A stretch of 5,033 nt of DNA, from IMG/VR virus record IMGVR_UViG_2706794662_000015. One strand, written 5' to 3'. Shown here piece after piece: positions 1 through 5,033 of the stretch. How positions within the stretch are numbered: the first letter of the stretch is position 1; every line of letters begins with the position of its first letter. This DNA comes from a virus (Duplodnaviria > Heunggongvirae > Uroviricota > Caudoviricetes). The notes below the pieces were generated by a model. That model saw only the letters and a program-made list of their open reading frames with translations. It searched no databases and was not told the DNA's origin. Both the position numbers and the translations under genes were made by a program.

Positions 1-61
1 GAACCGTTCTGACAGCTTCGGCTTTGAACTCTTTAGAGTAACGTTGGGTTTTTCTGCTCAT
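1..61 (-). CDS. IS3-family transposase OrfA, N-terminal 20 codons (5' partial in window; gene continues past position 1)
   Basis: ATG at 61..59 (minus), AGGAG RBS 6 nt upstream, translation MSRKTQRYSKEFKAEAVRTV. Not in the ORF track because it runs off the window edge. Confidence 0.6.
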   Translation of the reverse strand, partial: MSRKTQRYSKEFKAEAVRTV

Positions 62-125
62 TATTAGCTCCTTCTGATGCCATTCTATTTCAGGAAGGAG
101 TGTCCGTTAAACTCAGGCTACCTCA
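1..125 (-). mobile_element. Left end of an IS3-family insertion sequence (partial; continues beyond window start). Terminus inferred at about 125, reading TGAGGTAGCCTGAGTTTAACGGACAC... on the minus strand
   Basis: Minus-strand translation from ATG at 61 gives MSRKTQRYSKEFKAEAVRTV, the characteristic N-terminus of IS3-family OrfA proteins. A strong RBS (AGGAG, plus 67..71) precedes it. About 64 nt upstream the sequence starts TGA and has GGACAC near position 21-26, the same layout I recall for the IS3 left inverted repeat. The exact terminus (125 versus 127) is uncertain. Confidence 0.6.
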
Positions 126-377
126 CAATAGCCTTACATCATCTGCCAGTCTGGTTTCTCTTTTTGCCACAGAGAGCATCCAGTCAAACGGCTCCACAAC
201 CGCACCGCAGATTTTACAGCGGACCTGACGCTCTTTTTCGTCAACCCGTACAGAGGCGTGATGGCAATATGGTCTTTCCGATGGCTCATAAAGAAAATTA
301 ACCTGATTACGAGGGTCATCCTCTTTTACCGGAAATAAAACGATATTGCTTAACTCATCTTCTGGTTTTATTTCCAT
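123..377 (-). CDS. Small hypothetical prophage protein (84 aa) with a C-H-H...C-x2-C motif, possibly zinc binding; 3' end may be truncated by the IS
   Basis: ORF track 123..434; I prefer the internal ATG at 377 (MEIKPEDELS...) because it has a strong RBS (AAAGGAGAGGAG, plus 378..390 region) and the longer start directly abuts the upstream stop. Motif YCHHASVRVDEKERQVRCKICG. The stop TGA (123..125) coincides with the inferred IS terminal TGA. Confidence 0.5.
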   Translation of the reverse strand: MEIKPEDELSNIVLFPVKEDDPRNQVNFLYEPSERPYCHHASVRVDEKERQVRCKICGAVVEPFDWMLSVAKRETRLADDVRLL

Positions 378-434
378 GCTCCTCTCCTTTGATGCGAATG
401 CCAGCGGTAATTGAAGCCTGATAGCTAATTTCAT

Positions 435-857
435 TCACAGTATCGCCTCCTGAAAATTACCCTGATAGAAAGCCAGTACACGCTGCATAGCTTCGCTCTT
501 CCGGCACTCGCGACAGATTATATTCAGGCGCCTGTCGTAGCGGCGTATTTCTCCGTCAGGTAATGACCAGATAAGGTCCGGATCAACAACAACCGGTTTC
601 CTCACCTTTACTCTCGAGAGTTTTTTGCGGGCGCTTTGCCAGTCCTTGCGAGCCTGTTCAGACGGGAATAAGCCGTAGCCAGAATTATATACATCACCAC
701 TTGCGACCAGTTCTATGCATAAGCGACCGACAGACGCACGACTGATACCTGTTTCATCTGACAACTGCCGAATCGTGACCCGACCGTCCTGATGCACGAG
801 TTCCACAATTCGCGTCTTCAGTTCTTCCCGCTGTTCGGGAGTAAAAGGTTTCGCCAT
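435..857 (-). CDS. Hypothetical prophage protein (140 aa) with a predicted winged-helix/HTH segment (TIRQLSDETGISRASVGRL)
   Basis: Intact ORF with strong RBS (AGGAGG, 4 nt spacer, ATG at 857), 14 nt downstream of the DnaC-like stop, same strand, so a distal operon member. Function not recognised from sequence. Confidence 0.6.
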   Translation of the reverse strand: MAKPFTPEQREELKTRIVELVHQDGRVTIRQLSDETGISRASVGRLCIELVASGDVYNSGYGLFPSEQARKDWQSARKKLSRVKVRKPVVVDPDLIWSLPDGEIRRYDRRLNIICRECRKSEAMQRVLAFYQGNFQEAIL

Positions 858-871
858 AAATCCTCCTGAAA

Positions 872-1567
872 CTACTTAACAACCCTCGAATGGCTAACAT
901 TCGGACGCCAGCTCTCCCAGTTAAAATTCACCCAGCGCCCGCCGTTCATGACCATGCGATCCATCACCCGCTCGCCGAGCAATGTTTTCATCACCTCATA
1001 GTTCAGGTTTGTCAGCATCCCCACGCTGCGCATCGACGCTGTCCGGCGATCAACAATCTGGTGCAGCACCACCTGCTCGTTTTTCGTCTCGCGCTGAATG
1101 CCAATTTCATCAAGAACCAGCAGATCCACTTCGCACAGCTCCCGCAAAAATTTTTCGCCTGACTGCCCGTCGTCATAGCTGGCGTGCAGGGCGCTCATAA
1201 CATCAGCCACGGTAACCACAATCACTGTCTGACCGTCTTTCAGCAGGCGATTCCCGATAGCTGCCGCTAAGTGATTCTTCCCGGTACCAGGTTTTCCGCT
1301 GAACGCAAAATTTGTACACCCGGTCATCAGTTCATCGGCGATGGATTTCGCCTGGCTTAACGCGTATCGCTGGCCGTCGTTCTGCACCTGGTAATTCGCA
1401 AACGAGCATTTACGGTGCAACGGCTGGATGCCTGAGCGATTCAGAATTTTTTCCACCCGCAACTGGCGATTCAGGCGGTTGATCTCCTCGCTACGTTTCT
1501 GGCCTTCAGCAAGTTGCCACTCGCGCCACTCCGCTACCGTTCTGAATGGGGCGGTTACATGTGGCGG
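872..1567 (-). CDS. ydaV: DnaC-like AAA+ helicase loader, C-terminal 231 codons (YdaV-type prophage replication protein); 5' part cut off by the assembly gap
   Basis: Translation has Walker A (FSGKPGTGKNHLAAAIGN), Walker B (DLLVLDEIG) and a C-terminal MLTNLNYEVMKTLLGERVMDRM segment closely resembling E. coli DnaC as I remember it. Stop TGA at 872..874. The frame is continuous with the N-terminal fragment once the duplicated overlap is collapsed. Symbol assigned from family, synteny and reconstructed length (248 aa), not from a verified sequence match. Confidence 0.75.
   Translation of the reverse strand, partial: PPHVTAPFRTVAEWREWQLAEGQKRSEEINRLNRQLRVEKILNRSGIQPLHRKCSFANYQVQNDGQRYALSQAKSIADELMTGCTNFAFSGKPGTGKNHLAAAIGNRLLKDGQTVIVVTVADVMSALHASYDDGQSGEKFLRELCEVDLLVLDEIGIQRETKNEQVVLHQIVDRRTASMRSVGMLTNLNYEVMKTLLGERVMDRMVMNGGRWVNFNWESWRPNVSHSRVVK
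1363..1567. repeat. Left copy of an approx 205-bp diverged direct duplication flanking the assembly gap (about 94% identical to 1818..2022)
   Basis: Manual alignment of 1363..1567 to 1818..2022 shows about 13 mismatches, mostly synonymous in the DnaC-like reading frame. Confidence 0.85.
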
Positions 1568-1817
1568 NNNNNNNNNNNNNNNNNNNNNNNNNNNNNNNNN
1601 NNNNNNNNNNNNNNNNNNNNNNNNNNNNNNNNNNNNNNNNNNNNNNNNNNNNNNNNNNNNNNNNNNNNNNNNNNNNNNNNNNNNNNNNNNNNNNNNNNNN
1701 NNNNNNNNNNNNNNNNNNNNNNNNNNNNNNNNNNNNNNNNNNNNNNNNNNNNNNNNNNNNNNNNNNNNNNNNNNNNNNNNNNNNNNNNNNNNNNNNNNNN
1801 NNNNNNNNNNNNNNNNN
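1568..1817. other. Assembly/scaffold gap (250 N)
   Basis: Uninterrupted run of n from 1568 to 1817. The length is not a multiple of 3, so ORFs read across it are artefactual. Confidence 0.97.
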
Positions 1818-2022
1818 CATGTCGCTGACCGTCGTTCTGCGCCCGGTAATTCGCAAACGAACACTTCCGGTGCAACGGCTGGATGCCGGAGCGGTTCAGG
1901 ATTTTTTCCACCCGCAACTGACGATTCAGGCGGTTGATCTCCTCGCAACGTTTCTGGCCTTCAGCAAGTTGCCACTCGCGCCACTCCGCAACCGTTCTGA
2001 ATGGGGCGGTTACATGTGGTGG
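1818..2022. repeat. Right copy of the approx 205-bp diverged direct duplication flanking the gap
   Basis: See 1363..1567. The same codons (…PPHVTAPFRTVAEWREWQLAEGQKR…) are encoded on both sides with a few substitutions (S/C, QV/RA, Y/H). Confidence 0.85.
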
Positions 2023-2073
2023 GGTCAGTCTGCGGATACGCTCCAGAACGCCTCCTGTCGCAATATTTTTCAT
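1818..2073 (-). CDS. ydaV: DnaC-like helicase loader, N-terminal 85 codons (MKNIATGGVLERIRRLTPPHVTAPFRTVAEWREWQ...), truncated at the gap
   Basis: ATG at 2073..2071 lies 6 nt after the initiator stop (2080..2082), preceded by AGGGGG. Collapsing the overlap with 872..1567 gives a 747-nt, 248-codon gene, the length I recall for Rac YdaV. Confidence 0.7.
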
Positions 2074-2079
2074 GGTCTG

Positions 2080-3228
2080 TTACCCCCTGAAGCCTGGCGG
2101 GATCGCACTGTCCGGCAACGAGACGGTGTTAACCTGTCGGAGCAACGTCTCAGGCCGAACACCTTTCGGCGCGAACAGACCCTGGTATTCATTGGCGATG
2201 CTGTGTCGAATCACCTGCTCAGGTGTAAAACCCTGCTGACGGAATTTTTCCAGTTCCCGTATCGCCCCGTTAGCGCCCTGCTCCGTTCGAATCGGTTTTC
2301 GCAATGCCTGCCTGAACTGGACCCACTCATGCCAGAGTGTTTCTGGCAACCAGTCGGGCAGATCAACTGACAACGGGTCAAATTTTTTCTGGCGAACAGC
2401 CCCACCGATAACCAGAATTCCCTGCTCGGTGTGCCTTGCGATATCACTGCGCCGCAAGACACATATCCCGGTTTCAACAGCACCGATTTTGAGCAGTGAT
2501 TTCTGTCGCGGAGAATTTCGGTCAAGCTCGCTCCCACACCGGACACCGTTCCTGTCAGTCACGACGATATCAATCCGCCCTCCGCAACCGTCACCACGCT
2601 CTGGCACCGGATACTCACGACAGACATCCAGGCCAGCAGCCTGCAACGCAACCACCGCAGAATTACAAAATTCCGCTGCAGTACCGCCAGATAATCTCCC
2701 CTCAAGCACTCCAGCCACAAAATCCCGAAACTCCCTTCCGGAAGGGAAGGGTTTGGGATGGGTTAGATCTGTTTTTAGATCTTTATCTGTATCTTTATTA
2801 GTTGCCTTTGTGTTGGCATCATGTTCGAACATCACTCCAACATCTGTTTGAACACCTGTTAAATTTCTCTCTTGTTTTGTTTGAACATCTGCTTCCTTTC
2901 TGCTTCTTCTGGCCTGAACAGATGCTTTTCCTGCGGCTGATTTTTTGGTTAATTTTTCTCTGACAGATGCCAGATCTTCCTCAATCCGAAGATGCATCCA
3001 TTCGTCGCCGTTATCACAAAAAAACTCCCGCAAGGATGGTTCAACATCAACCCATCGCTCGTTAGTCAGACGGGCAATTTTTGCCAACCTGTTTTTGGGT
3101 ATTGGCTTTCCTGTTTGCCAGTAATTGAACATCAGCAACAAATACGCGCCGTGCTCCTCTGCTGACAAATGCATGGTGTCAGCCAGGTAATCAGCTATGT
3201 ACAGTTGCATGTATGGTAATGCGGCCAT
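2080..3228 (-). CDS. Phage replication initiator/replisome organiser: DUF1376-like N-terminal domain, charged linker encoding ori-like repeats, central domain of unknown function, DnaT-like C-terminal domain (YdaU/lambda-O functional analogue)
   Basis: ORF track 2080..3279 (399 aa). I place the start at ATG 3228 (MAALPYMQLYIADYLADT...), which fits the usual N-terminus of this family; the upstream 17 codons are hydrophobic and lack a convincing RBS. The C-terminus ...NTVSLPDSAIPPGFRG closely resembles the C-terminus of E. coli primosomal protein DnaT as I recall it. It sits directly upstream of, and near-coupled to, the DnaC-like gene. Confidence 0.75.
   Translation of the reverse strand: MAALPYMQLYIADYLADTMHLSAEEHGAYLLLMFNYWQTGKPIPKNRLAKIARLTNERWVDVEPSLREFFCDNGDEWMHLRIEEDLASVREKLTKKSAAGKASVQARRSRKEADVQTKQERNLTGVQTDVGVMFEHDANTKATNKDTDKDLKTDLTHPKPFPSGREFRDFVAGVLEGRLSGGTAAEFCNSAVVALQAAGLDVCREYPVPERGDGCGGRIDIVVTDRNGVRCGSELDRNSPRQKSLLKIGAVETGICVLRRSDIARHTEQGILVIGGAVRQKKFDPLSVDLPDWLPETLWHEWVQFRQALRKPIRTEQGANGAIRELEKFRQQGFTPEQVIRHSIANEYQGLFAPKGVRPETLLRQVNTVSLPDSAIPPGFRG
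2761..2900. repeat. Putative replication origin inside the initiator gene: AT-rich tract with two AGATCT and three 6-bp ATCTKT repeats (2764..2796), then three copies of palindromic TGTTYGAACAYC (2821..2833, 2846..2857, 2878..2889)
   Basis: Read directly from the sequence. The segment is visibly lower in GC than the flanking coding sequence and encodes a charged, low-complexity linker (residues about 128-177). In lambdoid phages the origin iterons lie inside the O gene. Confidence 0.5.
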
Positions 3229-3291
3229 AATTGCCCCGTATGATGCTGCCCGGTTGCTTAGAATAAGCACAAACAGCATGGAAACTTTTGC

Positions 3292-3714
3292 TTAATGAAC
3301 AATGACAGAATCGTCGGAAGACCCGCCGCCGCTGAAATGCGCTTTCCGGTAAACGGCCTGGACTGCATCATCATGCGCATCAATTGCCGTACTCAACGCT
3401 TCCTGCGCCGCCAGTAATGCACGGCGTTCCAGGGTATCGAAGATGCAGAGTCGGTGACGCAGCTCGCGCGGAAGAATTGCCAGAACCGCAGGGATCAGTT
3501 TCTGAATTTTTTCCCTTTGCGCTTTCGTTTCACCTTTCAACCAACGGTGATAGATATTCTGCTGATTGTTCCAGTCCTTGCCTGGTACAAGGGGCAATTC
3601 GCCGCCCCCCTGGCGCAGATATTCTTCAGTAATTGCGTTAGCGACCCACGCCTGCCCTTTTTCGGCTGCCAGGGCTAACAACACTGATTCGATGTGCTCA
3701 TGCCTGATTTTCAT
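3292..3714 (-). CDS. ydaT: cII-like / YdaT-like prophage protein (140 aa)
   Basis: Intact ORF whose ATG (3714..3712) overlaps the upstream stop in an ATGA junction (3711..3714), indicating translational coupling. Position (after the cro-like gene, before the replication genes) and length (140 aa) match Rac YdaT. The symbol rests on synteny and length, not on a verified alignment. Confidence 0.6.
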   Translation of the reverse strand: MKIRHEHIESVLLALAAEKGQAWVANAITEEYLRQGGGELPLVPGKDWNNQQNIYHRWLKGETKAQREKIQKLIPAVLAILPRELRHRLCIFDTLERRALLAAQEALSTAIDAHDDAVQAVYRKAHFSGGGSSDDSVIVH

Positions 3715-3953
3715 GAATCAACCGCTCCTATGCTGTTTTCGCTATGCTTACCGTCTGGGGGGAATACATCGTCAAGTCCACAATGAGCGCCAAGCCGATT
3801 AAGGGTAGAAACAATTTTTCTGCACTCCTCTAGTCCAGGGGTACGAAAATTTGCTTCGTAATTTGCCAGTCGGCTTTGTATCCACCCTAACTGAACAGCA
3901 AGTTGTCTTTGAGACAGCCCAAGCTGTTTTCGATATGTTGAAATTTTGTTCAT
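3711..3953 (-). CDS. Cro-like HTH_XRE DNA-binding protein (80 aa), YdaS-like
   Basis: ATG at 3953 with GGAGG RBS 7 nt upstream. HTH signature QLGLSQRQLAVQLGWIQSRLANYEA. Divergently transcribed from the repressor gene. Confidence 0.75.
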   Translation of the reverse strand: MNKISTYRKQLGLSQRQLAVQLGWIQSRLANYEANFRTPGLEECRKIVSTLNRLGAHCGLDDVFPPDGKHSENSIGAVDS

Positions 3954-4049
3954 TGAAAACCTCCGATGACAATTTTAAACACACCTTGTGTTATATAGCC
4001 AAGCTGTTTTGTGTTTTATGTAAATCACGATTCGTGATACAAGGATGCA
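3954..4049. promoter_or_regulatory. Divergent promoter/operator region between the cro-like and cI-like genes. Candidate operators: AACACA-cct-TGTGTT (3978..3992) and ATCACGA-t-TCGTGAT (4024..4038). Candidate leftward promoter: -35 at 3997..4002 and -10 at 3974..3979 on the minus strand, 17-bp spacer containing the first palindrome
   Basis: 96-bp AT-rich spacer between divergent HTH genes containing two perfect inverted repeats. The promoter hexamers are weak matches, so their assignment is tentative. Confidence 0.45.
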
Positions 4050-4469
4050 ATGGAAAAAGAAAACGAAAAAATTGCCGCTAGTAGGCTCAATGACAAAATT
4101 GCAATGCGTCTTAAAGAGCGCAGGCAGAAGCTTGGTTTATCTCAAGGAAAACTTGCTGAAATCTGCGGATGGACGCAATCGCGTATAGGTAACTATGAGG
4201 CGGGCAGCAGAAATGTTGGAGTACATGACGCTGTCGTATTGGGAAAGGCACTTGGCATATCTCCTCCTGAGCTCCTCTTTGGAGAACAGGAATCTTCTGA
4301 ATTGTGGTTAAATGAATCCCAACGAAAACTTCTTGAGTTGTTTAACCAGCTACCGGGCTCAGAACAACAACGAATGATTGAGCTATTTGAAGTCCGGCTA
4401 AAAGAAATCGATGAGTATGTAGAAAAATATTTGAGAGGCAGGATTAAAGATAATCCCCCACCGGAATAA
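4050..4469 (+). CDS. cI-like prophage repressor, HTH_XRE family (139 aa), RacR/DicA-like; no LexA-type (S24) autocleavage domain
   Basis: ATG at 4050 with AAGGA RBS (4041..4045). HTH QKLGLSQGKLAEICGWTQSRIGNYEAG is closely related to the cro-like protein's HTH. The C-terminal half is helical-looking (LLELFNQLPGSEQQRMIELFEVRLKEIDEYVEKYL) and lacks the Ala-Gly/Ser/Lys pattern of S24 peptidases. Confidence 0.75.
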   Translation: MEKENEKIAASRLNDKIAMRLKERRQKLGLSQGKLAEICGWTQSRIGNYEAGSRNVGVHDAVVLGKALGISPPELLFGEQESSELWLNESQRKLLELFNQLPGSEQQRMIELFEVRLKEIDEYVEKYLRGRIKDNPPPE

Positions 4470-4499
4470 TGATCTTGCTATCACAGTAATATGCCAATC

Positions 4500-4523
4500 A
4501 GCCCGCTATCAGCGGGCTTTTTT
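4500..4523 (+). terminator. Rho-independent terminator after the repressor gene
   Basis: Stem AGCCCGCT (4500..4507), loop ATC, stem AGCGGGCT (4511..4518), then a T-run (4519..4523), 31 nt after the repressor stop. Confidence 0.7.
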
Positions 4524-4565
4524 GTAGCATCATCATATGACACTCACCATAAAACACATTGCGTG

Positions 4566-4594
4566 TTGACACAAGAAAACAAATTGTGTTTAAT
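4566..4594 (+). promoter_or_regulatory. Near-consensus sigma70 promoter (pL-like, rightward): TTGACA (4566..4571), 17-bp spacer, TTTAAT (4589..4594)
   Basis: Perfect -35, 17-bp spacing, 5/6 match at -10. Inverted repeat AACAC-N5-GTGTT (4553..4567) overlaps the -35 and shares half-sites with the 3978..3992 palindrome. Confidence 0.45.
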
Positions 4595-4774
4595 AAGCAT
4601 ATCCAAACAACGCCCCACCAGAGAACGGCAGGACAATACCTCGAGTTATCCAGTCACTGAACAGGGCTAAGTAGCCAGCCTGAGGCATACGAACATGACG
4701 GCAGTTGTTGATTGATACAAAGCGCAGTAGATAAAACGTTCCGCCACCCGGCGTTAAGGGGAAATGGGGTCAAC

Positions 4775-4930
4775 ATGAATACTATCGATCTTGGCAACAA
4801 CGAATCTCTGGTATGTGGCGTGTTTCCCAATCAAGACGGCACATTCACCGCCATGACGTATACCAAAAGCAAAACGTTTAAAACCGAAGCTGGCGCACGT
4901 CGTTGGTTGGGAAGACATTCAGGTGAGTAA
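4775..4930 (+). CDS. Small hypothetical prophage protein (51 aa; MNTIDLGNNESLVCGVFPNQDGTFTAMTYTKSKTFKTEAGARRWLGRHSGE), possibly a YdaF-like small protein
   Basis: ORF track 4712..4930 uses a TTG start; I prefer ATG 4775 with a GGGG motif 5 nt upstream. Position (beyond the repressor, same strand) and length match the small ydaF-type genes next to racR in Rac, but I do not recognise the sequence with certainty. Confidence 0.45.
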   Translation: MNTIDLGNNESLVCGVFPNQDGTFTAMTYTKSKTFKTEAGARRWLGRHSGE

Positions 4931-5033
4931 AATGAACGAGACAGAATTAAAACACGTTATCGCTCTACTCCTAAATAGCTGCGCGGAATAGTAGATCACT
5001 TTGAGGGAACTTAGCCCGGATTGTGCGATCTGA

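Follow-up and report, generated by a model that had tools for sequence, protein, structure and literature searches.

The left end of an IS600 element makes up the first 125 nucleotides of the window and directly abuts the coding sequence of a small prophage gene. The window is the whole stretch of DNA that was analysed, namely the 5033-bp draft contig CWST01000195.1 of GCA_001254515.1, reversed. We consider it very probable that IS600 transposed into the small gene, truncating a 118-aa frame to 84 aa, and that the contig breaks within the repeat. IS600 (1264 bp, IS3 family, with two ORFs that overlap, a programmed frameshift and a DDE transposase) would have entered this gene, which belongs to a lambdoid, Rac-like prophage, between codons 84 (TTG) and 85 (CGC). 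Because the element and the gene lie in the same orientation and the element starts with TGA, IS nt 1–3 end the reading frame at once, after codon 84. The product would be an 84-aa protein that has kept its zinc-ribbon-like core and lost a highly charged C-terminal tail of 34 residues.

The host is most likely Shigella sonnei, because window positions 1818..5033 are 100% identical to S. sonnei 53G (HE616528.1). The contig ends 125 nt into IS600 because a multi-copy repeat cannot be crossed by short-read assembly; identifying this end as an IS600 boundary therefore explains the assembly break. The insertion is strain-specific and involves an IS that is fully known, an event that is ordinary for Shigella-type genomes.

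The IS600 end and its terminus

When a 130-nt query was searched against 5426 complete E. coli genomes, 3304 matching records were returned from 3061 of these genomes, usually with several copies per genome, and the best match was at least 99% in 3202 records. The matching copies are annotated as ‘IS3-like element IS600 family transposase’, and the name IS600 is taken from this RefSeq/PGAP annotation. Aligned in reverse complement, window 125..1 was identical at all 125 of 125 bases to nt 1–125 of a complete 1264-bp IS600 copy. The match to IS600 is far beyond chance. An earlier note on this DNA had placed an IS3-family element end at 1–130, an idea that it would have given up had the first 125 bp lacked an IS3-family hit; the strong match to IS600 bears the idea out.

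IS600 was first described in Shigella sonnei. It is among the five IS types that have expanded in all Shigella, and in S. sonnei it shows high recent activity and strain-to-strain variation (PMC7373316). The following features were located at the IS600 end and its junction with the gene:

1..125, minus strand: left end of IS600, nt 1–125, identical throughout to a complete copy; the contig stops here
99..125, minus strand: left terminal inverted repeat (IRL), TGAGGTAGCCTGAGTTTAACGGACACT, matching the reverse complement of the right end of a complete copy at 19/27 positions
82..110, minus strand: weak sigma-70-like promoter match upstream of orfA, TTAACG-17-TAGAAT, a consensus match only
68..74, minus strand: ribosome-binding site of IS600 orfA, GAAGGAG, 6 nt before the ATG, by direct reading
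1..61, minus strand: first 20 codons of IS600 orfA, MSRKTQRYSKEFKAEAVRTV, with the same start as the 100-aa OrfA of a complete copy
123..125, minus strand: TGA, nt 1–3 of IS600 and stop codon of the truncated gene, placed by the terminus and the alignment
126..128, minus strand: TTG, the last native triplet (Leu84), expected to be the 3-bp target-site duplication from the 3-bp duplications in 7/9 other copies

Read on the minus strand from 140 to 1, the junction lies between ...GATGTAAGGCTATTG and TGAGGTAGCCTGAGTTTAACGGACACTCCTTCCTGAAATAGAATGGCATCAGAAGGAGCTAATA, the latter being followed by ATG AGC AGA AAA... The orfA nucleotides from window 61 on this strand are ATGAGCAGAAAAACCCAACGT..., which translate as MSRKTQRYSKEFKAEAVRTV; in the RefSeq copies the orfA CDS starts at IS nt 65. 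Over the IRL, the orfA leader, the ribosome-binding site and the first 20 codons, the window is identical to IS600, with no visible difference. The window holds 10% of the element, and its orientation and terminus are as in the 1264-bp copies with 3-bp duplications.

Six IS600 copies were retrieved, lying in portal, erf, recE, capsid and tail-fibre genes and in a hypothetical gene of an O26 strain. All were 1264 bp long, with the 5′ end TGAGGTAGCC and the 3′ end ...CACCTCA (TGAGG...CCTCA ends). In complete copies OrfA matches HTH_Tnp_1, OrfB matches rve and related domains, and RefSeq joins orfA and orfB by programmed frameshift. An HTH-containing OrfA, an rve-containing OrfB, a programmed frameshift and TG...CA ends are hallmarks of the IS3 family, of which only the left end falls inside the window. 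The TG...CA ends were thus read from two sources: the left end, TGAGG, in the window, and the right end, ...CCTCA, from the complete copies.

To place the terminus, seven independent insertion contexts were compared, and they shared sequence only from TGAGG onward. The triplets to the left of TGAGG were TTG, CTG, TGG, TTA, TAG, CTG and ATT, and the base directly before it also varied (G, G, G, A, G, G and T). Because the seven flanks diverge immediately before TGAGG, the IS600 terminus is at window position 125. A strict target consensus for IS600 was also considered and rejected, since 14 distinct left flanks gave at most a mild A/T-rich, TAT-like bias.

The terminus agrees with the position that the earlier note had given, as does the start of orfA on the minus strand from 61 behind a ribosome-binding site (ATG at 61, GAAGGAG at 74..68). 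The note had also read the 64 nt upstream of orfA as an inverted repeat. This description fits ∼27 nt, where the 19/27 pairing is found; the rest is orfA leader. A scan of window 1..500 for promoters and terminators found one promoter-like site versus 0.7 expected by chance, and no terminator. No part of the window matched an Rfam family.

The interrupted gene and its intact alleles

The small gene and its upstream neighbours lie on the same strand:

123..377, minus strand: truncated small prophage gene, 84 aa, with a Cys/His zinc-ribbon-like region and without the C-terminal 34 of 118 residues
435..857, minus strand: upstream neighbour, DUF977 protein with a winged helix-turn-helix, 140 aa (Pfam PF06163, E = 1.1e-33)
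872..1567, minus strand: DnaC/IstB-like ATPase gene (ydaV-like), running into an N gap (Pfam PF01695; ydaV in the homologous locus)

When window 900..1 was compared with E. coli genomes by megablast, every match ended at query position 775, which corresponds to window 126. Three uninterrupted alleles were aligned across this point. In contig L024 (GCA_900160425.1), positions 5533–6974 match window 126..1567 with 100.000% identity across 1442 nt; the small gene is uninterrupted there and encodes 118 aa. A second contig, L025, is 99.93% identical to the window on the 126..1567 side and also has an uninterrupted 118-aa gene. FDAARGOS_943 matches the window at 99.7% identity as far as position 126, beyond which its sequence is CGCCAGGAGG...; the identity extends to ...GGCTATTG, and from there the intact locus has CGCCAGGAGGAACAGG... 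where the window has TGAGGTAGCC... In 1678 complete E. coli genomes, the match to a 200-nt probe with the site at its centre was uninterrupted. By their alignment to the window, L024 and L025 are empty-site (pre-insertion) alleles. Because the 100%-identical uninterrupted allele continues past window 126, the stop codon at 125..123 is the terminal TGA of IS600.

At the protein level, the window product differs by one residue (V17 versus I17) from WP_001343130.1, the 118-aa hypothetical prophage protein of FDAARGOS_943, and it lacks the last 34 residues, RQEEQERRRNIEKLIQIERNAKARIRRATKSRTE, of this phrog_1621 protein. In the intact protein these residues follow ...DDVRLL and are themselves followed by the stop codon (RQEEQERRRNIEKLIQIERNAKARIRRATKSRTE*). 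Both forms match the phrog_1621 profile significantly, the 118-aa form over positions 1–120 of 134 (E = 6.4e-56) and the 84-aa form over positions 1–87 of 134 (E = 3.5e-38), so that the 84-aa form falls short of full-length profile coverage. A Cys/His pattern, C37-H38-H39...C54-x2-C57, is visible in the small protein, and residues 36–73 match Pfam Zn_Ribbon_TF (PF08271) below the gathering threshold (21.5 bits versus a 29-bit cut-off, E = 1.6e-4). The truncated product keeps this Cys/His core, and the tail that was lost is probably helical as well as highly charged. These comparisons mark the 84-aa ORF as a pseudogene remnant of the 118-aa phrog_1621 prophage protein, whose family has no known function, and the truncated protein has presumably lost its function. 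The importance of marking the ORF in this way lies mainly in annotation.

The 84-aa form could instead be a natural short allele, with the adjacent IS600 having no part in the truncation. Nothing was found in favour of this explanation: contigs with the 84-aa product all adjoin an IS or simply end there. It is refuted by the empty-site alleles and we regard it as next to impossible, as the allele that is 100% identical up to the junction goes on for 34 codons, the PHROG profile reaches well beyond residue 84, and the stop codon consists of IS nt 1–3.

Truncation by IS600 is therefore the reading that we follow. It agrees with the suggestions of the earlier note that the TGA at 123..125 is supplied by the element and that the native 3′ end, now seen to comprise 34 further residues, has been lost. 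Among the homologues examined, none had its own stop at residue 84 without an IS. The note had also described the gene as the last of a prophage operon. This is so only in the window contig; intact relatives have queH, hok, rem, DUF1367, ybcO and a Q-like antiterminator gene downstream of it.

Two further observations concern the limits of the small ORF. An alternative in-frame ATG at 434 (minus strand) would lengthen it to 103 aa in the window and 137 aa in L025; for L025 the gene caller chose the ATG that matches window 434, and the RefSeq start is the ATG at 377, with the ribosome-binding site GGAGAGGAG. At the other end, six contigs from unrelated assemblies and metagenomes (L010, L011, L012, L013, L014 and L017) end 0–2 nt past codon 84, and in three of the six the native sequence goes on for 1–2 nt (C or CG). 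From this it seems that forks in assembly graphs are frequent after codon 84, at an IS junction or a mosaic boundary.

The insertion event and the draft contig

The window ends inside IS600; the other IS end, the duplication and the fate of the distal genes lie outside it. If the event was a simple insertion, the element would be a full-length copy flanked by a duplicated TTG, and the 3′ fragment of the gene would lie on its far side. The right junction expected from such an insertion is GCCAGTACACCTCA followed by TTGCGCCAGGAGGAACAGG (...GCCAGTACACCTCA-TTG-CGCCAGGAGGAACAGG). Neither the exact left junction nor the predicted right junction (IS600 right end, TTG and codon 85 onward) had a match in the genome and metagenome contig collections, and none of 5426 complete E. 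coli genomes had the left junction. Searching with the exact 84-aa protein returned the source contig and no longer contig crossing IS600. The gene/IS600 junction is carried by one assembly only.

The flanks of other IS600 copies were used to judge how the element is likely to have arrived. A 3-bp target-site duplication was present in seven of the nine complete copies with readable flanks, and a simple insertion in the window is accordingly rated as likely, to about the degree that this duplication rate implies. Alternatively, the IS600 copy may be a solo IS end or the edge of an IS-mediated rearrangement. In the latter case the junction would mark one edge of a deletion or inversion that the IS had mediated, or a point at which two IS600 copies had recombined; the rest of the gene would not lie on the far side of the IS, and the distal genes would have been lost or moved, the possibility that the earlier note had raised as ‘deleted or displaced’. 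This course of events is unlikely, and yet it has some backing: the matching 3-bp duplication was missing in the remaining two of the nine copies, the corresponding region of S. sonnei 53G has undergone heavy rearrangement by IS600 and IS1, and Shigella genomes contain 229–348 IS copies each (PMC7373316). It is opposed by the seven copies that are simple insertions with a duplication, and by an IS629 element at the same site in E. coli O145:H28, which is also a simple insertion with the rest of the gene directly after it.

We also considered whether the junction might be an assembly artefact, that is, a chimeric join to a repeat at the contig end, with the gene intact in the real genome. The junction is 125 nt from the contig end and comes from a single assembly, and the scaffold already contains a questionable 250-N join between paralogous prophage segments. 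However, the join falls exactly at IS nt 1, as in true insertions, whereas a chimera would be expected within shared k-mers, and the gene and IS600 have none in common. A real contig flanking an IS normally reaches ∼k−1 bases into the repeat, and another draft contig, L009, likewise reaches 28 nt into IS629. An artefact is thus very improbable, and transposition of IS600 into the gene is retained as the explanation. Being strain-specific, the IS600 site could serve as a lineage marker, as Shigella IS sites do (PMC7373316).

The same prophage module has undergone independent IS decay in S. sonnei 53G (HE616528.1; L018:12381–14849). There the paralogous small gene, a member of the same gene family with the same prophage surroundings, has been inactivated by IS1 rather than IS600 (L018:13741–14508). 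The IS1 element is inserted after codon 9 (MEIKPEDEL) with a 9/10-bp repeat, AAGATGAGTT, and the 118-aa C-terminus is still present downstream. Separately, the neighbouring DUF977 gene of S. sonnei 53G is shortened to 138 aa by another, inverted IS600.

The 250-N run at 1568..1817 of the window joins different alleles of the dnaC/ydaV-like gene. Its flanks (1367..1564 and 1822..2019) overlap by 198 nt at 93.9% identity. One side of the gap, 1818–5033, is 100% identical to S. sonnei 53G, and the other, 126–1567, is 100% identical to a second prophage module. In L024 the sequences matching the two sides are separated by 2316 nt. ORFs listed across the 250-N gap are artefacts.

An IS629 insertion at the same nucleotide

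An IS629 element of E. coli O145:H28 12E115 (AP024921.1; L008:10253–11562) occupies, to the nucleotide, the site that IS600 has in the window and points the same way, its left junction likewise lying after ...GGCTATTG. This IS629 copy is 1310 bp long and begins TGAACCGCCCC, and its initial TGA gives an identical 84-aa product. It is a simple insertion with a 4-bp ATTG duplication, and the 3′ end of the gene follows directly after the element. The same IS629 junction was found in two draft contigs (L009:10253 and L015:5321), one of which has it on a different allele, CTCTTG. In contrast to the window, 12E115 has a different prophage backbone and a visible right side, and its element has no detectable DNA similarity to IS600.

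The upstream contexts of the IS600 and IS629 insertions share only 281 nt, which is the gene itself. Since the two elements share no DNA and only these 281 nt are common upstream, the insertions are independent events. Replacement of IS629 by IS600 through homologous recombination was rejected, as there is no detectable DNA similarity between the elements.

The two insertions at one site may reflect a hot spot common to both elements, or they may coincide by chance. IS629 is reported to have no sequence-based target and to produce 3–4-bp duplications (PMC3271280), and the IS629 cases were found by searching for an identical truncated protein, so that the coincidence is subject to ascertainment bias. 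That the TTG/CGC junction is a true insertion hot spot common to IS600 and IS629 strikes us as rather improbable. If it were one, a local DNA feature rather than a sequence would be recognized by two IS3-family transposases. The same-site IS629 insertion is in any case a small data point on target choice in the IS3 family.

One such local feature can be put forward as a candidate. The native AGGCTA upstream of the junction (120..135, minus strand) is the inverted complement of TAGCCT at IS600 nt 6–11. Together they form a 6-bp inverted repeat at the junction, 8 nt apart (AGGCTA-TTGTGAGG-TAGCCT), which was noticed after the fact.
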